DNA from: Candidatus Heimdallarchaeota archaeon
GTDB lineage: Archaea; Asgardarchaeota; Heimdallarchaeia; Heimdallarchaeales; Heimdallarchaeaceae
Direction: 5' to 3'
DNA length: 64,000 nucleotides
Assembly (NCBI GenBank): GCA_019057375.1
Contig: DXJF01000112.1
Span: 15,932 to 79,931 of the forward strand
Of the stretch, positions 15,484-54,899 are shown piece after piece. How positions within the stretch are numbered: the first letter of the stretch is position 1; the number at the start of each line of letters is the position of its first letter. The position numbers and the translations under genes were made by a program. Under the pieces are notes generated by a model. The model was not told the origin of the DNA. It searched no databases and saw nothing but the letters and a program-made list of their open reading frames with translations.

Positions 15484-16506
15484 ATGGCTAAAATTGTAAG
15501 CAAAGAATTTTGCGCATTCCATTTCCACAATGATTCTGATGGTGAGTGTTCTAATTGTGGATTAGCAATTTGCAATCTTGACCAACAATATGACTTACAA
15601 GCTAACAGACAATGTCAAATATGTTTCAATTTAACAAGAGCCAAGAAGATTGCAAGGTATATGCAATTTGGTTTGTGGGGTGTAATTATTTCGCTTGTTG
15701 TAATGTTATGGTTATTACTAAGAGCTAGCGGAAATACTTTTTATGCTTTCCTGCCAGTTATTTTACTATTAGTTGTTCCATATCTTCTTCGTCCTGTTCT
15801 GATGAAATTGTATTTCAGAGATTTAGCGCCCATTGAGTCTATATTGCCTATCCTTCGTTATTTTGAAGGTACTGGAAATATGGACCATTACAAACTTTTC
15901 TTGAGATTCTTAGGCAAATTAACTGAAGAAGATATTAAAGATATCCAAAAACCATTATATGATTATCTAATTCCTGCTCTAGCATTTAATTATTCTAAGT
16001 TACCTGAAGGTTGGGAAGAAAATTTGATTAAAAATCTTCAAATTTCTAAGGAAAGGTTTATCGAACTCATGGTGAAGGATTATCGCACTATCTTGATTCA
16101 GACTGCCGTTCATAGTGCACAGTCTAATATGGCTCTCTTCATTTTCTACTTAAGTGAAACAGCTTCTGATAAAGATCTCATCAAAGAATACATAATTGAA
16201 ATTACATCTCAAGAAGTTATGAAGCTAAATGAAGAAGAGGTAAATATCATTTATAAACATCTTTTAGAAGATTTGTATCTTTATGAAGATAGATTTCTTG
16301 AACTCTGTGATGAATTGGAACTTAAAAAACAAAAAGATTTAATTATTCAACTAATAGAACGATTTGATCCCCCCCCAGTACCAAAGAATCAAATTGAAGC
16401 TGTTATGACTCCAGATCAACTTAGGGAGAAAAGAAGAAAGGAAAAGGATTTAGCTGAAAATCCTCCTCCTCTAGAAATCGAGCAAAAAACTGAGGAAACT
16501 CAGTAA
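15484..16506 (+). CDS. Membrane protein with N-terminal B-box-like zinc finger
   Basis: CAFH...CSNCGLAIC...CQIC, then two hydrophobic TM segments and a helical domain. Confidence 0.6.
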   Translation: MAKIVSKEFCAFHFHNDSDGECSNCGLAICNLDQQYDLQANRQCQICFNLTRAKKIARYMQFGLWGVIISLVVMLWLLLRASGNTFYAFLPVILLLVVPYLLRPVLMKLYFRDLAPIESILPILRYFEGTGNMDHYKLFLRFLGKLTEEDIKDIQKPLYDYLIPALAFNYSKLPEGWEENLIKNLQISKERFIELMVKDYRTILIQTAVHSAQSNMALFIFYLSETASDKDLIKEYIIEITSQEVMKLNEEEVNIIYKHLLEDLYLYEDRFLELCDELELKKQKDLIIQLIERFDPPPVPKNQIEAVMTPDQLREKRRKEKDLAENPPPLEIEQKTEETQ

Positions 16507-41586: not shown

Positions 41587-42858
41587 CTATTCTTTTGGCT
41601 TTAAGCTGAATTTAGCAATAAATCCTCCAGTATTGTTTGTTGTTAAAGGATCAAGATAAACTGTTGATTTATCCAATTCTTTCTCGATTTCCTTATAGTT
41701 TTCTGGAGGAGTTCGTGATTCTATTGTTTTAGATTTCTTCAGTTTCCTTATTGTTTCTGGTAACTCTTGATTGTCTAAATATGCTTTACTTAGTGTGTTC
41801 TGGAATACCTCTTCATTTTCTAAATAGTCAATTGAATGAGTAATGTAAGTAATAGATGCTTTACCATGAGAGCATCTATATAGTTCTCCGATAAGCTTTT
41901 GCTGATTTTCAGAAAACTGTTGCAATCTATCTATACCTAGATTTGATGAGAATACTGGAATTACAGCTGTTCTTGAGTTTTGAGGTTCGATGAAAAACGA
42001 TGTATATTTTATCTCAGGTATTTCCCTTACAAATGTAAGAAATGGTCTATGCAAAATTCTAATAGCTTTGTTCTTTGTTCTATCAACATTCTTCCTAAGA
42101 GCTTTGACTTGCATCTCATTCGCTGCTAGAACAGTTATTGGTATTTTGTAATTAGTAATTTCTGAAATGTAATTAGCTACATCCCCTTTATCAGTAGACA
42201 TAACCAGAATATTTTCTTTAGAGTCAAATTCCATAGATTTAACTCCAACTGCTTGAGTAGGAGACATTATACTGAAAAATCCTCTTCTATATTCCCTTAG
42301 TTCTGTTATAGGAGGAGCATAAGCCAAAGAACTTGACACCTTTACTACAGCCTTTTGAGTAAGTCTTGTTATTTCACTACTTTTTACTTGAGTCTTTCCA
42401 ACTGCTAGAATATTGTTTACATAATCTGCTATACAAACTGTTTCTCCAGAATCAAATTCATCATGATTCATAATATTAGCAGTCTGAACATCTCTCCCTA
42501 AAGCAATGTTTGTAGTAGATTCATGATCTACCCTTATAATAGGTAAATCTCTAGAATATCCAGACAACTCTTTTTTCTGCACTTCAACTTCTATAAAATC
42601 ATCAAAAAAAGGATGCTTACGAGCAATGTACCCCTTTTCTTCAAAGATGTCAAAGAGAGAGTAATAATCTATTTTTCTTATATTTACTTGAACCCACATT
42701 GAATTGTAAGGTGATCTAAGCCCATCTAACAATTCTAGCGTTTTGCTTAAATCAAAAACCTCAAGCCAATGATTCAGCAGACTAGCTGAGTATTGAAATT
42801 TCTTCATTAAATCAGCTGAAAGAAGATTATTTTCGTCTTGGCTCTCTGTGGGTTTCAT
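41587..42858 (-). CDS. RsmB/NOP2 (NSUN)-PUA homolog, probably catalytically inactive
   Basis: VQVNIRKI N-domain, PUA domain, EENEEV-like ENEEV; DAPCS is replaced by EPQNS and STCS by ITHS. Confidence 0.7.
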   Translation of the reverse strand: MKPTESQDENNLLSADLMKKFQYSASLLNHWLEVFDLSKTLELLDGLRSPYNSMWVQVNIRKIDYYSLFDIFEEKGYIARKHPFFDDFIEVEVQKKELSGYSRDLPIIRVDHESTTNIALGRDVQTANIMNHDEFDSGETVCIADYVNNILAVGKTQVKSSEITRLTQKAVVKVSSSLAYAPPITELREYRRGFFSIMSPTQAVGVKSMEFDSKENILVMSTDKGDVANYISEITNYKIPITVLAANEMQVKALRKNVDRTKNKAIRILHRPFLTFVREIPEIKYTSFFIEPQNSRTAVIPVFSSNLGIDRLQQFSENQQKLIGELYRCSHGKASITYITHSIDYLENEEVFQNTLSKAYLDNQELPETIRKLKKSKTIESRTPPENYKEIEKELDKSTVYLDPLTTNNTGGFIAKFSLKPKE

Positions 42859-43485: not shown

Positions 43486-43568
43486 TTCTTTTTTTACTGT
43501 TTCGACAAAGTTGATTCTATGTAATAATGAAATATATATAGTGAAATAATATTGTAGAAACAATCAAA

Positions 43569-46500
43569 ATGACTCTCCATTACTTAGATGAACCTTCAAC
43601 CTCAGCAGATATTTATTCCTTCTTAGCTGATGAAATCAAAGATTGGTTTACATCTAAGTTTCCAGGAGGGTTCACTCTTCCTCAACTTTATGCTATACCT
43701 TCTATTCATGATAGAAGAAACACACTAGTATTCAGTTCTACAGGATCTGGCAAAACCTTTGCCGCTTTCCTTTCAGCAATAAATGAGCTATTTATAGAAG
43801 CAAAGGACGGCAATCTAAAGGATGAGATTTATGTTTTATATATCTCCCCACTTAAAGCTCTTGGTAATGATATCAGAAAAAATCTTGAAGAGCCACTACA
43901 AGGAATTCAGGAGTTAGCAGCTGCAAATAAACTAGTAACACCTAAGATAAGAGTAGGTGTAAGAACAGGAGATACGACTCAAGCAGAAAGAACCAAAATG
44001 CTCAAAACCCCACCTCATATTTTGATAACTACCCCTGAAAGCTTAGGACTTATATTAACATCTCCAAAGTTTTCGTTGCACTTAAAGAGTGTTCGTTGGT
44101 TGGTTCTGGATGAGATTCATGAAGTTAGCTCGAATAAAAGAGGAGTAATGCTTTCACTCTTTCTTTCGTACCTACAGCAAGAAGTTGCAGAAAGAGAAAT
44201 CACTAGAATTGGCTTGTCTGCAACTCAAGCTCCCATAGAGGAGATTGCTAGATTTCTGGTGGGAAGCAATGATAATTTTCAGGAAAAAGATTGTTATATA
44301 GCTAATCTCCCACCACAGAGGAAACTTGACTTGGAAGTAAAGAGTCCAGTTAATGATATACTCCATACTCCCTACGTTATTATTCAAGAAGGAATATATG
44401 CTATCTTAGCTGATTTAATATTAGATCATGAAACATCCATAGTTTTCACAAACACACGAAGAGGGTCCGAGAATGTAGCATTCCGACTAAAGGAATATCT
44501 TGGAGATGAATACGCTTCTGCAATTGCTGTTCATCACTCTAGCCTTTCTAGAGAAATCCGCTTAGATGTTGAAGATAGATTGAAGAATAATGAATTACTT
44601 GCGGCAATAACATCAACTTCTCTTGAATTAGGTATAGACATAGGAAGTGTAGAACTTGTATCTCAAATAGGGTCACCAAAGACTGTTGCAAAGTATTTGC
44701 AGAGGGTTGGACGAAGTGGTCATTCACTAGATAGAATAGCAAAGGGGAGACTGATTACAACTGATAGAGATGACGCTATTGAATGTGCAGTTCTAACCAA
44801 AAGTGCTTATAGCAGAGAGATAGATAAAGTTCAGATTCCTATCAACTGTTTGGATGTTCTTGCTCAATTTATTGTGGGTATATCTCTTATGAAGAGATGG
44901 GGTGTTGAAGAAGCATTTGATATGATAAGAAAATCATACAACTACAAAGCTCTTGATTTTGATGATTATATTAACGTATTAGAATATCTAGGAGGGTACA
45001 ATCTCGATGTAGAAGAGAGAAAAATCTATAGAAAGATATGGTATGATGACAAAGAAAAAGCATTTGGAAAGAAGAGAGGTTCTAGATTGGTTTTTTACAC
45101 TAATATAGGGACCATTCCAGAAAATGCTGATTATCGAGTTGAATTAGAAACTTATAGAACAAGAATAGGTGTTCTTTCTGAAAGTTTCGTTGAACGATTG
45201 ACACCAGGGGATATTTTCGTATTAGGTAGTCATACTTACCAGTTTAGAAGGACAGTGGGTTCCAGAGTTGTTGTTGCAGAAGCTTTTGGAAGAAGACCTA
45301 CTATACCTAATTGGGTTGGTGAGGAACTCCCTAGGTCTTTTGAATTATCGCAACAGATTGGGCGATTCATTGATGCCGTTTCAAAGAAAATACAAAAAGA
45401 AGATGAAAGCCAAGTAAGAGATTGGATTGAAAGATCATTTCAAGTCGACGATATTATATCGAAATCAATTGTTGAATATGTTAAAGAACAAATGATGCTT
45501 CTCAATGTTACTCCAAGTGACAAAAAACTATTGATAGAATCTTATATTGATCCACAAGGTAGAATGGTTTTAGTTTTTCATGCTTATTATGGTAGGAGGG
45601 TAAATGATGCATTATCAAGGGCTTATGCATATACTATAGGAAAAGCTATTGATTCTGACATTGGATCAGCTGTTAATGATAACGGTTTCTTGTTAATGCT
45701 TCCCATAGACAAAATAATCGACACTTCCATTGTTCCTGAACTATTGTCTTCTGTTAATTTGGAGGAGATTCTTAAACAAGCAATAATTAACACAGAACTA
45801 TTTGTTAACAGATTTCGTCATGTTGCAAATAGAGCATTTATGGTTCTAAGAAGAAGTGGTGAAAAACATATTTCTGTATCTAGACAAAGCATGTATGCTA
45901 GAAGAATATTCTCAACACTTCGGGACCAAGACAGTTTTTGTGTAATAAAAGAAACTTATCGGGAGATATTAAAAGATTACATGGATTTGGCAAATTGTTT
46001 AGTAGTTTTAGCAAAATTGCAAAAGGGTGAATTTGAATATCATATCACTCCCTTGTCAGATATCCCTAGTCCATTTGCTCATGGAATTGTTCTATTGGGT
46101 ATTTCAGACATAGTCCAGATTTCAGATAGAAGTGCTTTATTAAGAGAGCTACATCAACAGGTTCTAGCGAAAGTTTTTGGAAAGGAAGGATCTAAAGAAA
46201 TATTATTTAACACAGAATTAGTTGAGAGGATTTTCAACAATCGAAGCTATAAGAACACTGATCTCCCCATTTCTTCTCTCAAGCAATTAAAGAACGCTGT
46301 AAAAGCTTTAGCACCAATTAAAACAACAGATAGTGTGAATCCAAGCATCTATCATCACAGTATTACTGATGCAAAACAGATAAGAGCGTGGTCTTTGGCT
46401 TTACACAATAATCGAGAACTAATAGAAGTTAATATTGCTAGAGGAGATAGAAGATCCATACCAATTACAGATTTTCAGTTATTTTGGAATCTTTATCTTA

Positions 46501-49295
46501 AATCAATTGAGAAAACTGAATTTGATGAGAAAATTCTGAAACTAATTAATGATGTTCATCCTATTTCTCTAAATAAAATAGCTGAAGAACTTAAGGAAGA
46601 GACAAGAACTGTTCAGATACATCTAGAAAAATTAGAAAAAGCTATGTTGATAGCTCGTGTTGAATATGAGCTATATGGTGGGGGAATTCGATCAAAATAT
46701 GCACCAATAAGTAAAGTCGTTCCTGAACCTCTACTTCAAGAAGCAAAGAAGCTTGATCCTGAAGAATGTTTAAAGAAGATTATCCTTCGTTTCTTAAAAG
46801 TACATGGACCATCTAGTATGCTTCAAATAGCTGAATATTTGAGAATCGAAGAGGAGAAACTTGTACGAGCTTTGACTGAACTTGAACAGAAAAATCGAAT
46901 ACTAAAAGGAAGAATTACTGAATCTTCTGTTGACCTACAATACATTCGTTTAGAAGATAGAGAATTACTTCGGAATCTCAGTAATCGAAAACCAGATTCG
47001 ATAATATTAACATCTGAAGATTTGAACTATATGCATTATAATTTCGCAGTTGAGAGCATATTTGGTGAGAATTTACAGGGAAAAGAGAGCGTTCTTAATC
47101 TCCTGAATCGCTTTGGTTCGATTGAGGATTTAAGTTCATTATCTGTTAGAATAAATGACTTTGATCTTGATTGGATAAGAGATTTAATTGAAAAAAATGA
47201 ACTTATCAAGGGAAGATTCAGTCACAAAAGATTATCTTTTGTAAGCAGAGAAATGTTCCCATACTATTATGTTGCTTATAGAGAACCATTTAATCTCTCT
47301 AGATCTGAAGAAAAAATACTTTCAACAATAAGAAAGTACGGACCACTAACAAAAAGAGAAATTATAGAATTTACAGAAATGGATGGAGATATAATTCAAG
47401 AAAACTTGACGATCCTTGATAGAACGCTGTATTTAGTTCGAAAATCAGTATCTCAAGAGTCTTTTATTCCCAAACAATTTGTTCCTAATGTTTATGAAAT
47501 ATCTGAACGATATTTTGCTGTAGATAAACTTCCTTCATTTGAAAAGAGTCAAGAGTTCATTCTTTTGCAAGCTATTGAATCTCTAGGTCCTGTCTCTCTG
47601 GTAGAGTTAACCCATCTAATTGGTTTCAGATATAGCAATATCGAGAAATTGATTAAGAATCTGTTAAGCAAAAAGAAAATTATTGAGAGAAAACTAACTG
47701 AAAGAGAAACTAATTACTATATGACACCTGAAAGATTCAAAGACATTGGTCAAATAAAAAATAATCTGATAAACATGGCGTTGAAGGAGGATGAAAGAAT
47801 AGTAATACTTCCTAAGAATGATCCCTTCACTAGATTAGGGATGCGCTTACATTTACGTGATATTTATGGGGAAGGACAAATTGATCCCATTTTACTAGAT
47901 GGTGAGATGGTGGGATCAGTTGAATATAAACTTCATAAAGGACAATATTTACAGATTTATGACTTGAAGCTAAAAGATGAAGTAGCTTTTCATTCAGTCA
48001 CCCTTCAGAAAATTGCATCTGAATTAGTTTCATATACCAGAAAGATTCATAGAGTCTTGAGTCTTCAGATAGAAGATATTAACGGGAAATCAGTTCTCTC
48101 TAAAAGCAACAATTTCATAAAAACAACTTTAGTAAAAACAGGTTTCAAACTAATCAAAGATACTTTAGTAGGTGGAGACACGGTAACTAAAGTATTTCCA
48201 GAAAGAGTCATAAATAAATACATTATGGAGTCTTTATGGTTGAAGAAAAAAACACCTTCCTTAACTGTAGAAACACTCCTACAGATGATCAATCATTTCA
48301 GTTTTATCAGCTTAAGAGAGATTCTTTCAAGATTTCCTGAAAATATGTCCTCAATTATAGTCTATCTTCTGAATAATCTTCTTGAAGACAAAGAAGTTAT
48401 TTGTCAAGGAAATGTATTCCTATCACTAGATTTTGCTCTATATAAGAAGAGTGGTTTAAGAAGAAGAAAAAGAATGAATGCAGAAATTGAGGAAACCTAT
48501 AGGAATATTCAGAAAGGAAATACTAATCAGGTAGAGTTATCCAAAAAATGGAAAGGAGCTACTGCATCATTAAAATCTGCTTTAAATACTCTCGAAGAAA
48601 ATATGAAAATTGGAGTAAGATCATTAAACAATCTGTTTGAACCTCAGGAATACTGGGATATAGGACCCTTCTTAGTTGAAATAAATAAAGATATTGCAGA
48701 AATAAGGAAAAAATATATTTTTGATATTCTATGTGGTTTAGGTGTTGCTACAGAAGACCATATTGAAGAAAGAGGAGTTATTCCAGGGGTTTTAACTAAG
48801 ATAAGAATCAAGGAAGTTCTAGCAGCTCTAATTGATGAAGATAAAATCTACGGTGGTAGATTTGTTGAAAATGATTTACAATTCTATTATATATCAACAA
48901 AAGATTATGACAAACTTCTCCAACTAGAAAAGAAAGAAGAATCTAAAGTTGATTATTCTCCCAAAGAAGTTAGAGAGAGATATTACTTGTTATACCCAAA
49001 AGATTTAGCTATTAATATTCTCAAAAATCAATTACCTGAGCATTTTGATGTTTCAACAAATAATTACATAGTTGTTTTAAACCAGAAAGTAGCTGCACAA
49101 TGCTATACTGAACCATTAAATAAGAGAACACTTGCAATCAAGAATCTTCTGCTTGCTCCCTGGATACATTCAGAGAGTTCATTGAACTATGTAGTAAATG
49201 CTATTGAAGACATTCCCACTTTCGATAATCTTGAAATCAATAACTTAGTTGTTGAGAAGATAAATGGGATTCCAACAAACACATTGGTGAAATAA
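43569..49295 (+). CDS. lhr: Lhr-family SF2 helicase with about 1000-aa C-terminal tandem winged-helix (AlkZ-like) extension
   Basis: TGSGKT, YISPLKAL, TTPES, DEIH, SAT, HHSSL, SLELGID, QRVGRSGH; Lhr IPNWVGE motif; repeated wHTH units after about residue 870. Confidence 0.9.
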   Translation: MTLHYLDEPSTSADIYSFLADEIKDWFTSKFPGGFTLPQLYAIPSIHDRRNTLVFSSTGSGKTFAAFLSAINELFIEAKDGNLKDEIYVLYISPLKALGNDIRKNLEEPLQGIQELAAANKLVTPKIRVGVRTGDTTQAERTKMLKTPPHILITTPESLGLILTSPKFSLHLKSVRWLVLDEIHEVSSNKRGVMLSLFLSYLQQEVAEREITRIGLSATQAPIEEIARFLVGSNDNFQEKDCYIANLPPQRKLDLEVKSPVNDILHTPYVIIQEGIYAILADLILDHETSIVFTNTRRGSENVAFRLKEYLGDEYASAIAVHHSSLSREIRLDVEDRLKNNELLAAITSTSLELGIDIGSVELVSQIGSPKTVAKYLQRVGRSGHSLDRIAKGRLITTDRDDAIECAVLTKSAYSREIDKVQIPINCLDVLAQFIVGISLMKRWGVEEAFDMIRKSYNYKALDFDDYINVLEYLGGYNLDVEERKIYRKIWYDDKEKAFGKKRGSRLVFYTNIGTIPENADYRVELETYRTRIGVLSESFVERLTPGDIFVLGSHTYQFRRTVGSRVVVAEAFGRRPTIPNWVGEELPRSFELSQQIGRFIDAVSKKIQKEDESQVRDWIERSFQVDDIISKSIVEYVKEQMMLLNVTPSDKKLLIESYIDPQGRMVLVFHAYYGRRVNDALSRAYAYTIGKAIDSDIGSAVNDNGFLLMLPIDKIIDTSIVPELLSSVNLEEILKQAIINTELFVNRFRHVANRAFMVLRRSGEKHISVSRQSMYARRIFSTLRDQDSFCVIKETYREILKDYMDLANCLVVLAKLQKGEFEYHITPLSDIPSPFAHGIVLLGISDIVQISDRSALLRELHQQVLAKVFGKEGSKEILFNTELVERIFNNRSYKNTDLPISSLKQLKNAVKALAPIKTTDSVNPSIYHHSITDAKQIRAWSLALHNNRELIEVNIARGDRRSIPITDFQLFWNLYLKSIEKTEFDEKILKLINDVHPISLNKIAEELKEETRTVQIHLEKLEKAMLIARVEYELYGGGIRSKYAPISKVVPEPLLQEAKKLDPEECLKKIILRFLKVHGPSSMLQIAEYLRIEEEKLVRALTELEQKNRILKGRITESSVDLQYIRLEDRELLRNLSNRKPDSIILTSEDLNYMHYNFAVESIFGENLQGKESVLNLLNRFGSIEDLSSLSVRINDFDLDWIRDLIEKNELIKGRFSHKRLSFVSREMFPYYYVAYREPFNLSRSEEKILSTIRKYGPLTKREIIEFTEMDGDIIQENLTILDRTLYLVRKSVSQESFIPKQFVPNVYEISERYFAVDKLPSFEKSQEFILLQAIESLGPVSLVELTHLIGFRYSNIEKLIKNLLSKKKIIERKLTERETNYYMTPERFKDIGQIKNNLINMALKEDERIVILPKNDPFTRLGMRLHLRDIYGEGQIDPILLDGEMVGSVEYKLHKGQYLQIYDLKLKDEVAFHSVTLQKIASELVSYTRKIHRVLSLQIEDINGKSVLSKSNNFIKTTLVKTGFKLIKDTLVGGDTVTKVFPERVINKYIMESLWLKKKTPSLTVETLLQMINHFSFISLREILSRFPENMSSIIVYLLNNLLEDKEVICQGNVFLSLDFALYKKSGLRRRKRMNAEIEETYRNIQKGNTNQVELSKKWKGATASLKSALNTLEENMKIGVRSLNNLFEPQEYWDIGPFLVEINKDIAEIRKKYIFDILCGLGVATEDHIEERGVIPGVLTKIRIKEVLAALIDEDKIYGGRFVENDLQFYYISTKDYDKLLQLEKKEESKVDYSPKEVRERYYLLYPKDLAINILKNQLPEHFDVSTNNYIVVLNQKVAAQCYTEPLNKRTLAIKNLLLAPWIHSESSLNYVVNAIEDIPTFDNLEINNLVVEKINGIPTNTLVK

Positions 49296-51641
49296 ATGAC
49301 AATTAATGAAGTATCCCTATCCCTTGAACAACTAGCTCAGTATCTTGCTGAGAAACAAAATCTCGATAAGGAATTCAAAGGTGTCAACTATAGCCATGCA
49401 ATATCTATAATAAACAACATAGTTATTTTTCAAGATTCTGAATCACTTTTTGTAAGGATGAGAACCTACTCTTCTAATCTTCTTCAATCGCTTGTAAAGA
49501 ACAAGCATTTGGTTCATGCTCCTTTCAAAGAAAACAAGCTATCATATGTTGGTAGAGACAATCTATCAGCCTTTCATAAAATCTCAATAAAAGAAAATAT
49601 TGAGTACAAGAAACCACAAGCCAAAGCTGTTCTTGACCATATTAGGGGAGAGGATTCTTCTACTCGCTTTAAAATAATGGAACACTTTGAATTAACTAAG
49701 GATGCTGTGATGGAAATCCTTTCTGAGCTTAGAAATAATTTTCAAATCTTCATGTTTTATAATGGAACTAACTGGTCTATTTTCAGTACAAAACTATTGT
49801 TGGAGGATCATTCAACAAGCAAAACATCTGCGATTTCAGATTTAATTTATAATGTTATCAAAAGCTTTGGACCTATAACAGTTCCTCAAATTATACGAAT
49901 TCTTAACATGACTGGTGGAAGGATAAGTACAAGTATAATTGAACTTTTTGAAAATAAGAAAATTGTAAGAGGAAATTTCATAGAGAACTCAAGTTATGAA
50001 GCTTTTTTAACTAGTGATGAATTGGATTATTTGAGAAAATATCTAGAAGCATACACCCCCCCAGTAACTCGTCAGATTGTGATACTTCCAAAAAACGATC
50101 CTCTTTCAGAATATTGGGCCTCTGCTGATTTCTTGAACATAGATGAAATAAAAAGTGAAATTGTATATGTTGATGGTAAACCCGTATGTTCCTTTGACTA
50201 CAAAATTGTGGGAGATAAATTGCATGTTTCTAATTTTATACGGTCAGTGGAATATACTGTTCTGGAAAAGGAAATCAGAGATAAGATTCAAGAGTTTACT
50301 GAAAATAAAGGAAAAATTCTTGTCTTTCCAGAATTACAATCAGAAGTTATCGAAAATCAATCAAAAATTTTTGCCAATATTCTTTCTCAGCGAGGGTATA
50401 GGTCTCGCTCTTCTGGATTGGTCTATTCAATGACAGGAAAGAAAGTACTAGTTGGTGATAAAAATCTATTTCCAACAGAAGATATTTTTCCTCTTTTGCT
50501 GAGTAAGCAATATCTTAGTGGCAAAACTCAATTCACAACCAAGACTGAAATTTTGAAGGGATTGGGATCGTTGGGAATTCCACTCCCTATGACTTCTGTT
50601 CTGATTAGAACAAGTTCTGGAAAAGAACAATATTTTGATGAATTGGTGAAAGATAAGCAACTTGCTCTTGGTAAATTTGGGTCATTTACTCGCGGTTCTG
50701 TTGTATCAAAAGATTATCCTGTCTTTGCAAAACTTAGTCCATCTAGATATCACGGAGTATTAGAAGAAAGAATTCTCAATCTAATTAAGCAGAAAGAGAG
50801 AATTAACTTTTCTCAGTTAAAGGCCTCTCTAAATCTATCCAATCGAGTCCTCCTATCATCTATTCAGAAATTAGAAAATTCTCATGAAATAGTCCAATTA
50901 AAGTCTGTTTCAGATCAGATTATCTGGATGTCAGTGTCTAAATTTCTCAGTGGTATTCAAACCAAAAAATATGAAACTCAAAGAGAATCATGGTTAGATG
51001 TTATTTATAGAATTTTATCATCAAATTTACCGTTGACAATTGATCAATTAGCTAATCTAACAGGTTTATCTAATACTCAGATTGAAGTTAATATCAAGGA
51101 ACTAATAGCTTCGAAAGGTGTTAGATCTGGAAGATTTATGGAAGATGAGGAAAATGTCCAATTCACAACAAAAGAAGTTGAAAGCTTTATATCTGGATAT
51201 ATCTACCAGAAGGACGATAATTTAATACAAGCAGACAGTGTAGAGCTAATTTACCTTCCTCGAAATGATCCTATGTTAGTAGTTTATAGAAATTACCTTC
51301 TGAAACGATTTAAGCTTCGTTCGCTATTCTCTCGATCTGTTCCTTCTGATTATGGTGAAATAATTCTCAAAAACGGTGAACCTATTGCTCTTCTACATAT
51401 TAAAAAGGTAGAAAAATTAGATTTTATTAACAACATCGAGATTTTACCTGAATTCAATGATACTCATACATTAATGTTCATTTTCGGTGCAATTCAGGAA
51501 TTCTTCCATAAAACAAAAGAAGAAGGGAAAAGAACAATTCGAATCAAACAAATCAATAGTATCCCGCTTTCTTCGAAAGAGGGAAAAGATTATGCTAAGC
51601 TGTTGGATGATATGCAGATAAATTACCAAATTCTGTCTTAA
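49296..51641 (+). CDS. Partner protein made of two modules paralogous to the Lhr C-terminal repeats
   Basis: FGPITV, G.F...E, LPKNDPL and LPRNDPM...K.EPIA repeat the Lhr LGPVSL...LPKNDPF...DGEMVG pattern; GGTGA RBS at 49287. Confidence 0.75.
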   Translation: MTINEVSLSLEQLAQYLAEKQNLDKEFKGVNYSHAISIINNIVIFQDSESLFVRMRTYSSNLLQSLVKNKHLVHAPFKENKLSYVGRDNLSAFHKISIKENIEYKKPQAKAVLDHIRGEDSSTRFKIMEHFELTKDAVMEILSELRNNFQIFMFYNGTNWSIFSTKLLLEDHSTSKTSAISDLIYNVIKSFGPITVPQIIRILNMTGGRISTSIIELFENKKIVRGNFIENSSYEAFLTSDELDYLRKYLEAYTPPVTRQIVILPKNDPLSEYWASADFLNIDEIKSEIVYVDGKPVCSFDYKIVGDKLHVSNFIRSVEYTVLEKEIRDKIQEFTENKGKILVFPELQSEVIENQSKIFANILSQRGYRSRSSGLVYSMTGKKVLVGDKNLFPTEDIFPLLLSKQYLSGKTQFTTKTEILKGLGSLGIPLPMTSVLIRTSSGKEQYFDELVKDKQLALGKFGSFTRGSVVSKDYPVFAKLSPSRYHGVLEERILNLIKQKERINFSQLKASLNLSNRVLLSSIQKLENSHEIVQLKSVSDQIIWMSVSKFLSGIQTKKYETQRESWLDVIYRILSSNLPLTIDQLANLTGLSNTQIEVNIKELIASKGVRSGRFMEDEENVQFTTKEVESFISGYIYQKDDNLIQADSVELIYLPRNDPMLVVYRNYLLKRFKLRSLFSRSVPSDYGEIILKNGEPIALLHIKKVEKLDFINNIEILPEFNDTHTLMFIFGAIQEFFHKTKEEGKRTIRIKQINSIPLSSKEGKDYAKLLDDMQINYQILS

Positions 51642-51681
51642 AATGGGGATAGATTTTTTTATTTCAAAATACTATCTAAGT

Positions 51682-52545
51682 ATGATGATACGTAAAGCAA
51701 TTTATGCGGGTTCATTTTATAAAAGTAATTCGGATTCATTAATTAAATCAATAGAAGCCTGTTTTATGGATTCCTTGGGACCAAGAAAACTCCCAAAAAG
51801 GATAACTGAAACAGAAGAAACACCACCCTTCTTTCTTGTTCCACATGCTGGTCATATGTATAGTGGTTCGGTCGCAGCTTCAAGCTTTCTGGAGTTGAGC
51901 AAATATAGAAAACCTGATACCATTGTAATCTTAGGGCCTAATCATACGGGTATGGGTTCTGAAATTGCTGTTCCAGAAGTGGAAGGATGGGAATCCCCAC
52001 TAGGAACAATGAAAATCGATCAAGAATTTGTTGATAAGCTAATTGACAAATGCAATTTAGTCACAAAAAATGATTCATCCCACAGTAGAGAACATTCAAT
52101 TGAAGTTCAATTACCCTTCATTCAGTTTCTATATGATGATCCTCCAGCTCTTGTTCCAATTGCAATGTTGAACCAAGGTTATGACTCAAGTATATTACTT
52201 GGTGAAACTATTGGAAAGATGATTGATGAAGAAAATATAATTGTATTAGCTAGTAGTGATTTCACTCATTTTGAAAGTCATGATTCAGCTAAGGAGAAAG
52301 ACACACGAGTGCTTAAAGCAATTGAAAACATGGACTCTAAAACTATGTATGAAATAAAGTATCAAGATAATGTGTCAATGTGTGGCTATGGACCAATAGC
52401 AGCTACTATCGAAGCAGCCAAACAAACTGGTAGGGAAAAGTGCAGAATACTTAATTATGCTACATCAGGGGACGTTTCTGGAGATAGAAGTCAAGTAGTG
52501 GGATATGGATCAGCTATTTTCTATAAAAATGAATTAATTATCTAG
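51682..52545 (+). CDS. MEMO1/AmmeMemoRadiSam protein B
   Basis: AGSFY, PHAGHMYSG, GPNHTG, EHSIEVQLPF, SSDFTH, MCGYGP motifs. Confidence 0.9.
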   Translation: MMIRKAIYAGSFYKSNSDSLIKSIEACFMDSLGPRKLPKRITETEETPPFFLVPHAGHMYSGSVAASSFLELSKYRKPDTIVILGPNHTGMGSEIAVPEVEGWESPLGTMKIDQEFVDKLIDKCNLVTKNDSSHSREHSIEVQLPFIQFLYDDPPALVPIAMLNQGYDSSILLGETIGKMIDEENIIVLASSDFTHFESHDSAKEKDTRVLKAIENMDSKTMYEIKYQDNVSMCGYGPIAATIEAAKQTGREKCRILNYATSGDVSGDRSQVVGYGSAIFYKNELII

Positions 52546-52601: not shown

Positions 52602-53129
52602 GTGTCAAAGAAAACATATCTTACTAACAAAATAGTTCTTATTGGCGATGCAAGAGTGGGGAAAACCTCCTTGGTTCGAAGATTCGTATCCAATATGTTT
52701 GATCCATCTTACAAGATTACTTTAGGTACAACAATAATGAAAAAAGAAGTTGATTACCTTTCTTACAATGTGACACTCGCTATATGGGATATTGGAGGTC
52801 AAGAAGTTTTCAGACAAATAAGAAGCAAATATTTCTTTGGAAGTAAAGGCGCTTTAGCTATTTGTGATGCCTCTAATTATGAATCTTTTAAGAATCTCCC
52901 CTCTTGGGTTGAATCTTTTAAAAAGGAAGTGGGAGACAAACCTATCATTTTTATAGCAAATAAATGTGATTTAAAAGATCAAAAAGTCACTGAAGATGAC
53001 ATGAATCAATTGATTAAGGATTTCAGCAACACTGAATATTTGTATTCCTCTGCAAAAGATGGAACAAACGCTGAAAAAGCTTTTATCAACTTAACCAGAC
53101 TTATGGTTGCTGCCGAAGACATAGTGTAG
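52602..53129 (+). CDS. Rab-like small GTPase
   Basis: GDARVGKTS, ITLG, WDIGGQE, NKCD, SSAK; GTG start. Confidence 0.9.
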   Translation: MSKKTYLTNKIVLIGDARVGKTSLVRRFVSNMFDPSYKITLGTTIMKKEVDYLSYNVTLAIWDIGGQEVFRQIRSKYFFGSKGALAICDASNYESFKNLPSWVESFKKEVGDKPIIFIANKCDLKDQKVTEDDMNQLIKDFSNTEYLYSSAKDGTNAEKAFINLTRLMVAAEDIV

Positions 53130-53146
53130 TTATTTGAATAACACTC

Positions 53147-53623
53147 TTAATCAGTTTGAAGTTCATTTCTTAAAAGATACAATGCGAGTGTTATTTCTCC
53201 TAAGCAACCCAGTTCATTCCCTTTATCAAAGTAAACTGAAATACCTTTATCTAGCTCTTGTTTAGTTAAACCTGGTTCAGATCCACCAAATATTAGCAGA
53301 ATATTTTTTCCTTCTTTGTAAGAAATTGCTATGTTTTCTGGATTAAAGATTTCTTTTGAAAAGGGTTGTTTGATAAAGAGATAAACCTCGTCAGGTTGGC
53401 ACAATTCAATAGAATCATCAATATCTTGCAAATATAAAAGGTTAGCTTTTTTTGAATGAACTAGCTTTTGTGCAACTGGTACTCCACTTGTTGCAGCGGT
53501 TCCTGATGCCTTTGAAAGTACTATATCTCTTGCCCCCAATCCCAATGCTATTTTGACGAATTCTCTACAGTAATTTACACTACTGAAATTGTGTAATTGA
53601 ACAATAATTTTCCCAGAACTCAT
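53147..53623 (-). CDS. Small SPOUT-family protein (COG4080-like)
   Basis: LHNFSSV...SKASGTAATSGVP...FGGSEPGL SPOUT-knot-like pattern. Confidence 0.65.
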   Translation of the reverse strand: MSSGKIIVQLHNFSSVNYCREFVKIALGLGARDIVLSKASGTAATSGVPVAQKLVHSKKANLLYLQDIDDSIELCQPDEVYLFIKQPFSKEIFNPENIAISYKEGKNILLIFGGSEPGLTKQELDKGISVYFDKGNELGCLGEITLALYLLRNELQTD

Positions 53624-54368: not shown

Positions 54369-54899
54369 TTAATCTCTAACTTCAATTCCCTGAAGAATTT
54401 CCTCTCCCATTACAATAAATGCATCTTCAACATTGATTCCATTTTTAGCAGAAGTTTCAATAAAGCCGATACATCCAGAATCTTTAGCGTACTTCTTACC
54501 TTCTTCTGTAGAAACATCTCGTAAATCTTCAAGATCATTTTTGTTACCTACAAGCATGAGCATAATTCGAGGACTCTCTGTTCTGGCTTCTCGAATCCAA
54601 GTATCCAGATTTTCAAAGGATTGGCGACGAGTAATATCGTAAGTTACTAATGCTCCTAAACTGCCTTTAAAGAAAATTTGACGCATGGATGCGAACCTAT
54701 CTTGTCCAGCAATATCCCAAAGTTGCAAACAAACTCGAGTATCTTTAATAGTCTCAAATCGGCTGTAGGGTTCCATACCTATCGTCATGAGGTATCCTGC
54801 CTGAAATTTGTTGTGAATGAATCTCTGGACTAAACTTGTCTTACCTACTGCACCGTCTCCTAGTAAAAGAATCTTGAAAGTATACTTGTAGCTTGCCAT
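54369..54899 (-). CDS. Rab-like small GTPase
   Basis: GDGAVGKTS, TIG, WDIAGQDRF, YDITRRQSF, GNKND, ETSAK motifs. Confidence 0.92.
   Translation of the reverse strand: MASYKYTFKILLLGDGAVGKTSLVQRFIHNKFQAGYLMTIGMEPYSRFETIKDTRVCLQLWDIAGQDRFASMRQIFFKGSLGALVTYDITRRQSFENLDTWIREARTESPRIMLMLVGNKNDLEDLRDVSTEEGKKYAKDSGCIGFIETSAKNGINVEDAFIVMGEEILQGIEVRD

Follow-up and report, generated by a model that had tools for sequence, protein, structure and literature searches.

The 64,000-nucleotide (nt) stretch of DNA analyzed here (the window; positions 15,932 to 79,931 of the forward strand of contig DXJF01000112.1, assembly GCA_019057375.1) derives from Candidatus Heimdallarchaeota archaeon, family Heimdallarchaeaceae, and is AT-rich, with a G+C content of about 33%. 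It carries two abutting open reading frames (ORFs). One encodes a giant Lhr helicase; the other, called here the partner, encodes a paralogue of the helicase tail and contains only two modules with the fold of the glycosylase AlkZ. The locus is the single Lhr repair helicase of this Heimdallarchaeaceae archaeon, in a two-gene form. The Lhr gene is the only DEAD_assoc-containing gene of the genome, and a single PF08494 match per genome is found across the family.

The helicase is divided into a core and a long tail, and the repeated units of the two proteins are numbered from U1 to U3 in the tail, U4 and U5 in the partner (Table 1). The tail is made up of one partial and two full AlkZ/YcaQ-fold modules. 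Homologues of both ORFs all come from metagenome-assembled genomes of Heimdallarchaeota/Heimdallarchaeaceae, the closest named source being AB_125 (82-87% identity), and the lengths of the orthologues are nearly constant, 1905-1916 amino acids (aa) for Lhr and 771-789 aa for the partner.

Table 1. Lhr, partner, their units and neighbouring features; positions are those of the window
Feature	Position	Strand	Residues	Description
423-aa protein	41587..42858	-	423 aa	PUA is the sole domain at Pfam significance
TATA-like stretch	43530..43541	+		A/T-rich, aaatatatatag
ORF Lhr	43569..49295	+	1908 aa	core followed by a 1038-aa tail
Lhr core	43569..46178	+	aa 1-870	RecA1, RecA2, WH_Lhr and Domain 4 (DEAD_assoc); Pfam and NCBIfam
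U1	46179..46997	+	aa 871-1143	truncated; AlkZ-like winged helices without a beta-barrel
U2	46998..48188	+	aa 1144-1540	complete AlkZ/YcaQ-fold module, three winged helices and beta-barrel; LPKNDP at aa 1414-1419
U3	48189..49295	+	aa 1541-1908 and TAA	additional AlkZ-like module, more diverged, following the canonical Lhr C-terminal domain
Putative coupling junction	49286..49298	+		GGTGAAATAAATG; Shine-Dalgarno-like GGTGA in the last Lhr codons, TAA, then ATG
ORF partner	49296..51641	+	781 aa	ATG starts on the base directly after the TAA of Lhr
U4	49296..50450	+	partner aa 1-385	complete AlkZ/YcaQ-fold module; LPKNDP at aa 264-269
U5	50451..51641	+	partner aa 386-781 and stop	complete AlkZ-fold module; LPRNDP at aa 654-659
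Memo-like gene	51643..52545	+		PF01875, E 1e-79
Small GTPase	52602..53129	+		Ras/Roc family, PF00071, E 1e-38
RecB-family nuclease	53147..53623	-	158 aa	DUF2122, PF09895, E 8e-23
Small GTPase	54369..54899	-		Ras/Roc family, PF00071, E 2e-52

The helicase core

Pfam recognizes in the core a DEAD domain (aa 38-222), Helicase_C (aa 279-384), the Lhr-specific winged helix WH_Lhr (aa 415-576; PF19306, E 1e-30) and Domain 4, DEAD_assoc (aa 649-837; PF08494, E 4e-49). The NCBIfam model PRK13767 spans aa 7-873 with 1045.5 bits (cut-off 849), and a profile built from 14 orthologues reaches the Lhr of M. smegmatis (5V9X/7LHL) with an E value of about 1e-137. Motifs I (GSGKT), II (DEIH), III (SAT) and VI (QRVGRSGH) are all present, and invariant in the 14 orthologues.

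The core is an intact motor of the aLhr2 type, a member of helicase superfamily 2 (SF2) predicted from its family to translocate in the 3'-5' direction. Placement in the aLhr2 group follows from AB_125, whose one Lhr appears under aLHR2 in the supplementary data of Hajj et al. 2021 (PMC8301817) and whose genome carries a 1908-aa orthologue, together with the single PF08494 match per genome.

Modules of the Lhr tail

AlphaFold2 (AF2) models were obtained from alignments of natural orthologues, with a mean predicted local distance difference test score (pLDDT) of 84.8 for the partner and 77.0 for the tail. Tail residues 11-659, corresponding to U1 plus U2, match residues 894-1500 of M. smegmatis Lhr (7lhl_B) with a VIA Z of 24.1 (526 of 569 residues aligned, root mean square deviation [rmsd] 6.8). 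Because U1 and U2 superpose on the whole C-terminal domain of the mycobacterial protein, the two units together are the already known bacterial-type domain, and the new parts of the system are U3 and the partner.

U1 is the counterpart of the N-terminal winged-helix (WH) subdomain of the bacterial Lhr C-terminal domain. It matches a canonical AlkZ/YcaQ set (E. coli YcaQ, the 391-aa AlkZ-like gene of this genome and four database relatives) at 99.2% in HHalign, over YcaQ residues 71-271 only, and harbors the PF06224 match of the Lhr, which is partial (34.4 bits, aa 979-1110, model positions 82-213 of 329). U2 is the ancestral AlkZ-like module of the Lhr C-terminal domain. Tail residues 274-633 superpose on YcaQ/AlkX (9zd6_A) with a VIA Z of 28.1 over 332 residues, and U2 superposes on AlkZ (5uuj) with 23.4; the match to the canonical set is 99.6%. 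U3 is related in HHalign to U5 (96.9%) and U4 (93%). Its AlkZ-like fold is predicted from the profile match to the canonical set (94.6%) and from the order of secondary-structure elements, which in the AF2 model is that of U2, U4 and U5; the last helix and strand present in these three units are missing at the end of U3.

The partner protein and its kinship to the tail

Both units of the partner are close to whole enzymes in fold. Partner residues 3-346 (U4) superpose on 9zd6_A residues 13-402 with a VIA Z of 28.1 (rmsd 3.7, 329 residues aligned), residues 390-754 (U5) on residues 1-371 of AlkZ (5uuj) with 23.9 (331 residues aligned). The top Foldseek matches of the partner are YcaQ/AlkX (9ZD6), the Lhr C-terminal domain (7LHL) and AlkZ (5UUJ), all with E about 1e-11, and HHalign relates U4 and U5 to the canonical set at 99.1% and 99.3%, respectively. 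U5 is consistently basic, with a mean isoelectric point (pI) of 9.4, the other units being near neutral. Pfam finds many winged-helix sub-matches (MarR/HTH_24-like) in the partner. A full-length PF06224 match over the gathering score was found neither in the Lhr tail nor in the partner, the latter having no match to this Pfam family. In a sequence search of the PDB the partner profile gave only weak Z-alpha and winged helix-turn-helix (wHTH) matches, and the Lhr profile reached 7LHL through the core only; the kinship of the tail to the Lhr C-terminal domain and AlkZ had to be established by fold comparison and bridging profiles.

Tail residues 306-1035 are collinear with partner residues 36-760 (HHalign probability 99.6%, E 1e-23, 682 columns), that is, over about the last 730 residues of the tail, and the two sequences are also matched by blastp (E 2e-24). 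The partner is in turn internally duplicated, residues 9-322 and 393-722 being related at 97.5% in profile-profile comparison. Nine of the ten possible pairs of units are related at 77-99% by HHalign (U2-U4 99.0, U4-U5 98.1, U3-U5 96.9, U1-U2 96.9); the figure for the pair U2-U3 is an artefact of overlapping cut ranges and carries no evidence, these two units being linked only via the others.

A preliminary description of this DNA, made from the sequence alone, had anticipated much of this organization. It had read the first 870 aa or so as an intact Lhr motor, as borne out by Pfam, by the 1045 bits of PRK13767 and by the motifs invariant in 14 orthologues. The motifs that it had singled out, LP.NDP and DGE.VG, are genuine motifs of the AlkZ/YcaQ family, and AlkZ/YcaQ folds are indeed what the models of the units show (VIA Z 23-28, with about 330 of 371-390 residues aligned). 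The 781-aa gene begins where it had been placed, on the base after the TAA, consists of two units (VIA Z 28.1 and 23.9), and is homologous to the Lhr tail, as the blastp and HHalign values indicate. The three or so tail repeats are real, their profile-profile relationships lying far beyond chance, but are not equal, U1 being truncated and U2 and U3 full. Similarly, the five-module array proposed holds as five related units across two proteins, but is made up of four full modules and a partial one.

Distribution and linkage of the gene pair

Families are designated f1 (that of the window), f2 and f4 (sister families of the same order) and f8 to f11 (further Asgard families). A scan of species-representative genomes yielded 30 loci, all from Heimdallarchaeota, including the complete genomes of Ca. 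Heimdallarchaeum aukensis and Ca. H. endolithica; the gene for the Lhr of about 1908 aa abuts the partner at every family locus with upstream DNA. Among 400 Asgard genomes, the partner resides in all 30 genomes of f1, which belong to 5 genera, and in the roughly 360 Asgard genomes outside f1 the partner search matched only Lhr tails and two short fragments. Lhr is found in 219 of the 400 genomes, mostly in a core-only form of 850-970 aa. Long forms measure about 1908 aa in f1, 1851 in f2, 1662-1789 in f4, 1895 in f8, 2345-2352 in f9, 1408 in f10 and up to about 2500 in f11.

In f2 and f4 the 1662-1851-aa Lhr is followed by a further gene, which overlaps it by 1-4 nt or lies from a few to 55 nt downstream. 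This gene encodes a 713-759-aa protein with two modules in four loci and is cut at the contig end in one f2 locus; one downstream gene encodes 529 aa and has no module match. Relatives of these f2/f4 partners are also significant in a profile search of 1.8 billion proteins (E 1e-8 to 1e-16). The pair is thus adjacent across three families of the order, f1, f2 and f4, and more diverged in the last two. Outside f1 the pair has none of the other neighbours found in the window (GNAT, Memo, small GTPases, DUF2122, GatE), and the adjacency of Lhr and partner is thus the sole linkage conserved beyond family-level synteny. The phyletic survey which the preliminary description had called for gives, in sum, a tight and wide co-conservation of the two genes, in 30 of 30 family genomes and in f2/f4.

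In a quick maximum-likelihood (ML) tree of 39 modules, the positional groups U2, U4 and U5 each join f1 with f2/f4 sequences, with Shimodaira-Hasegawa-like approximate likelihood ratio test (SH-aLRT) values of 96, 92 and 90, respectively. Since these positional groups span the three families, the two-gene, five-unit layout predates their split. U2 groups in addition with module 2 of the long Lhr of other Asgard families (f8, f9; SH-aLRT 98).

The f9 Lhr (2345 aa) has three full modules on one chain, and no partner gene follows. In f8 (1895 aa) the contig ends at the gene. Three full AlkZ-like modules are found in the 2345-2352-aa Lhr of loci L073 and L074 (G004:C1, about 1069746-1076783, and G002:C1, about 1027395-1034453), the last of them scoring 180-186 bits against the canonical AlkZ/YcaQ set. 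Another long Asgard Lhr corresponds to an open frame of about 2513 aa (G007:C9, near 378406). A protein of 1938 aa (P0074) has about 516 extra residues within RecA2, which may be an intein. Two 'tail-only' database proteins, P0065 (1046 aa) and P0066 (929 aa), could stem from incomplete gene calling and were not taken as split forms.

The junction between the two genes

The junction reads TTGGTGAAATAAATG; its GGTGA, similar to a Shine-Dalgarno motif, is set 5 nt ahead of the partner's ATG, and that ATG follows the TAA immediately. Most of 24 related loci have the string (T)GGTGA(A/T)(A/T)TAA, abutting ATG. In the window and in most of the genus Lhr and partner share one reading frame; in some relatives they are out of frame, as a consequence of a 1-nt gap in loci L022 and L028 and of an 8-nt overlap in L023; in the sister families f4 and f2 the genes overlap by 4 nt or 1 nt, again out of frame. 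Because the frames differ among relatives, coupling by termination and reinitiation is favoured over read-through, and the two proteins are presumably made together by translational coupling, as far as can be judged from the sequence.

Residues at the catalytic loop

The catalytic residues of YcaQ are Q45-I46-D47, and the motif of the family is (Q/H)-phi-(Q/D) (PMC9040887). Neither this motif nor its AZL2 variant fits any of the modules in HHalign and MAFFT alignments, in agreement with the preliminary description, which had seen no QxQ/QxD motif. In HHalign, U2, U4 and U5 have a gap where the catalytic loop should be, and U3 has S-[F/L]-[E/N/K/R] there; the residues aligned by MAFFT are SIED in U2, FISLRE in U3, IFQD(P/S)E in U4 and IPLP in U5. 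Other family landmarks are retained. LPxNDP corresponds to L288-S-P-F-D292-P of YcaQ, its Asp being kept in 19/19, 19/19, 22/22 and 21/22 sequences of U2, U3, U4 and U5, respectively, and DGE.VG corresponds to the HRGQLVGR hairpin.

The Lhr of E. coli is an Asp-dependent uracil glycosylase, though it lacks QxQ (PMC10953399). Comparison of the tail profile with the C-terminal domain of this protein gives 11% in HHalign, too weak to map its catalytic Asp, D1536. Any base excision by the modules would need a non-canonical site, as in E. coli Lhr.

The genome of the window has two stand-alone AlkZ-like genes, both on the minus strand (G000:C124:9442-10416 and G000:C147:28667-29632). The stand-alone AlkZ-like proteins are 391 aa (PF06224, 160 bits) and about 412 aa long, and the 391-aa protein reads G-L-H-A-T-S at the position of the catalytic motif.

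Neighbouring genes

About 28-38 nt separate the TATA-like stretch aaatatatatag from the Lhr ATG downstream of it; its sequence and position would suit an archaeal promoter and a very short leader. Downstream, the Memo-like gene begins one base past the partner stop. It follows Lhr and partner in 27 of the 30 loci of the family but not in sister families; its adjacency probably reflects general synteny. As a third component of the system this gene was rejected, being adjacent only within the syntenic family and absent beside the pair in f2 and f4. The two small GTPases, which flank a small cluster, are of the typical Asgard 'eukaryote-like' type and syntenic across the family. The DUF2122 nuclease, encoded on the opposite strand 1.5 kb downstream of the pair, is found in 21 family loci, and is absent beside the pair in other families.

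Comparison with known systems

Bacterial Lhr (M. smegmatis, 1507 aa, 5V9X core and 7LHL C-terminal domain; E. coli, 1538 aa) has the same core, as seen from the profile match at E about 1e-137, and in its full-length form ('bLhr-HTH') the same C-terminal layout, a WH subdomain followed by an AlkZ-like part of three WH and a beta-barrel. In bacteria the C-terminal domain assembles into homo-tetramers and has no QxQ (PMC8053096); the domain is also described in PMC10953399 and PMC9841417. It and the modules of the pair are alike in having no AlkZ catalytic motif. Unlike bacterial Lhr, the Asgard pair resides in an archaeal host, and features the extra module U3 and a separate, apparently coupled two-module paralogue; between its tail and the bacterial C-terminal domain similarity is not detectable at the sequence level.

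Archaeal Lhr is generally presented as core-only (PMC7437997). An aLhr2 with a single HTH_42 extension is known in Methanomassiliicoccales, and 'longer' aLhr2 are mentioned without detail (Hajj et al. 2021, PMC8301817). The Methanomassiliicoccales protein likewise belongs to the aLhr2 group and is an archaeal Lhr with an AlkZ-like (PF06224) region, but has one HTH_42, versus one partial and two full modules in cis and two more in the partner here; neither multiplied modules nor a partner gene are mentioned in that paper. U2, U4 and U5 superpose on almost the full length of the AlkZ/YcaQ (AlkX) interstrand-crosslink DNA glycosylases (5UUJ, 9ZD6; Z 23-28, about 330 residues aligned). These enzymes have the LSPFDP-type motif and the beta-hairpin in common with the modules and match all units in profile-profile comparison (94.6-99.6%). 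Unlike these enzymes, the modules of the pair lack (Q/H)-phi-(Q/D), are arranged in tandem, and are attached to or paired with a helicase.

The closest architectures are those of the other Asgard long Lhr (1895, 2345-2352 and 1662-1851 aa), whose cores are 43-54% identical to that of the window and whose tails have the same order U1-U2-U3. The f2 and f4 forms also have a two-module partner gene; the f9 form has three full modules and no partner. All are known as database sequences only, no description of them being found in the literature searched. The preliminary description had considered the architecture undescribed. This holds for the two-gene form and the multiplied modules, of which the literature searched likewise gave no description, but not for U1 plus U2, a known bacterial-type domain; moreover, long multi-module tails occur in several Asgard families, and aLhr2-HTH_42 has been published (PMC8301817).

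Interpretation of the gene pair

The pair combines an aLhr2 motor, the bacterial-type domain and U3 with a two-module partner to which Lhr seems to be translationally coupled, and it is inferred, with reasonable, if far from complete, confidence, that the two products form a hetero-oligomeric repair helicase. Lhr and partner would assemble via their paralogous modules, and the resulting hetero-oligomer would replace or extend the homo-tetramer nucleated by the C-terminal domain in bacterial Lhr. The helicase motor would thereby be attached to a multi-module platform binding damaged or branched DNA, the basic U5 being the best candidate for nucleic-acid contact.

Several observations weigh against this scheme, or against parts of it. 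The predicted template modelling score (pTM) of the AF2 models of tail and partner is 0.48-0.52, and the geometry between modules is uncertain. The fused form of f9 adds one module, not two, and is therefore no clean fusion of the two genes. A duplication of the di-module U2-U3 into U4-U5, suggested by the collinear alignment, finds no support in the module tree, where U3, U4 and U5 cluster together weakly (SH-aLRT 89). Finally, polar clusters occur at the position of the catalytic loop, E1186-D1187 in U2 (conserved in 17/19 and 16/19 sequences, respectively) and Q46-D47-x-E49 in U4 (19/22, 19/22 and 21/22), and therefore the modules might be enzymes, not scaffolds.

The last point leads to a different view of the locus, in which at least one module, most plausibly U2 or U4, is active via a non-canonical acidic site, the helicase delivers several lesion-specific modules to DNA and the partner adds specificities; such an array of glycosylases is compatible with a complex of the two proteins. 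The precedent of the E. coli C-terminal domain, Asp-dependent without QxQ (PMC10953399), speaks for it, as do the conservation of the two clusters at the very loop bearing Q-phi-D in YcaQ and the LPxNDP Asp kept across U2-U5. It is nevertheless rather unlikely, given that no module fits the family motif or the AZL2 variant, U5 reading I-P-L-P, that the genome already has two canonical stand-alone AlkZ-like genes, and that D1536 of E. coli is not mappable onto the modules. The partner might also be a free-standing DNA-binding or regulatory winged-helix protein, which shares an operon with Lhr and does not bind it. The many MarR/HTH_24-like sub-matches, the strongly basic U5 and the fact that stand-alone AlkZ-like proteins are common would suit such a protein; adjacency in three families with otherwise different neighbours, the stop/start junction with its conserved Shine-Dalgarno-like motif, and the finding of the partner only beside long Lhr wherever the context is readable make it improbable.

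Two further explanations deserve very little credit. According to one, translation continues through the TAA, or this codon arose artefactually by assembly or mutation, and the product is one 2690-aa Lhr with five units. The partner is in frame and abutting in the window and most of the genus, and a fused 2345-aa multi-module Lhr exists elsewhere; yet stop, ATG and the Shine-Dalgarno-like motif are conserved in dozens of independent assemblies, and the ORFs are out of frame in L022, L028, L023, f4 and f2. Hardly more credible is an anti-phage defence helicase of the DpdJ or BrxH type with an accessory protein, a candidate raised by PADLOC matches to DpdJ (PDLC02897, 516 bits) and BrxHI (206 bits) and rejected. 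These matches are confined to the Lhr-like core, the NCBIfam DpdJ model reaches 37 of the 800 bits required, PADLOC gives no family match for the partner, and the gene is single-copy throughout the family, in a syntenic housekeeping neighbourhood (GatD/E, Memo, small GTPases).

The hetero-oligomeric repair helicase can be carried a step further, to an obligate, pseudo-symmetric hetero-oligomer composed of paralogous AlkZ-fold modules, four full and one partial for each Lhr:partner pair, with at least one new acidic site (E1186-D1187, Q46-D47-x-E49 or the LPxNDP Asp being the candidates) and able, driven by the helicase, to excise lesions with multiple specificities. This is a tentative proposal, on balance doubtful. 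Such a lesion-excision machine, if real, would match the homo-tetramer of bacterial Lhr in two-subunit form and would be confined to the archaeal order closest to eukaryotes.

What the large AlkZ-like C-terminal domain does in Lhr is debated; the proposals are a scaffold for oligomerisation, a sensor of crosslinks and a uracil glycosylase. A lineage which multiplied the module, and put two copies on a separate protein, apparently co-translated, has in effect dissected the domain naturally. Its modules lend themselves to separate expression, to binding tests with each other and with DNA lesions, and to mutation of the few conserved polar sites. The practical value of the pair is that it makes the function of the C-terminal domain testable; it is not a new kind of machinery. 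Archaeal Lhr is not 'core-only' in Asgard archaea, and Heimdallarchaeaceae depend on the giant form, which is their only Lhr.

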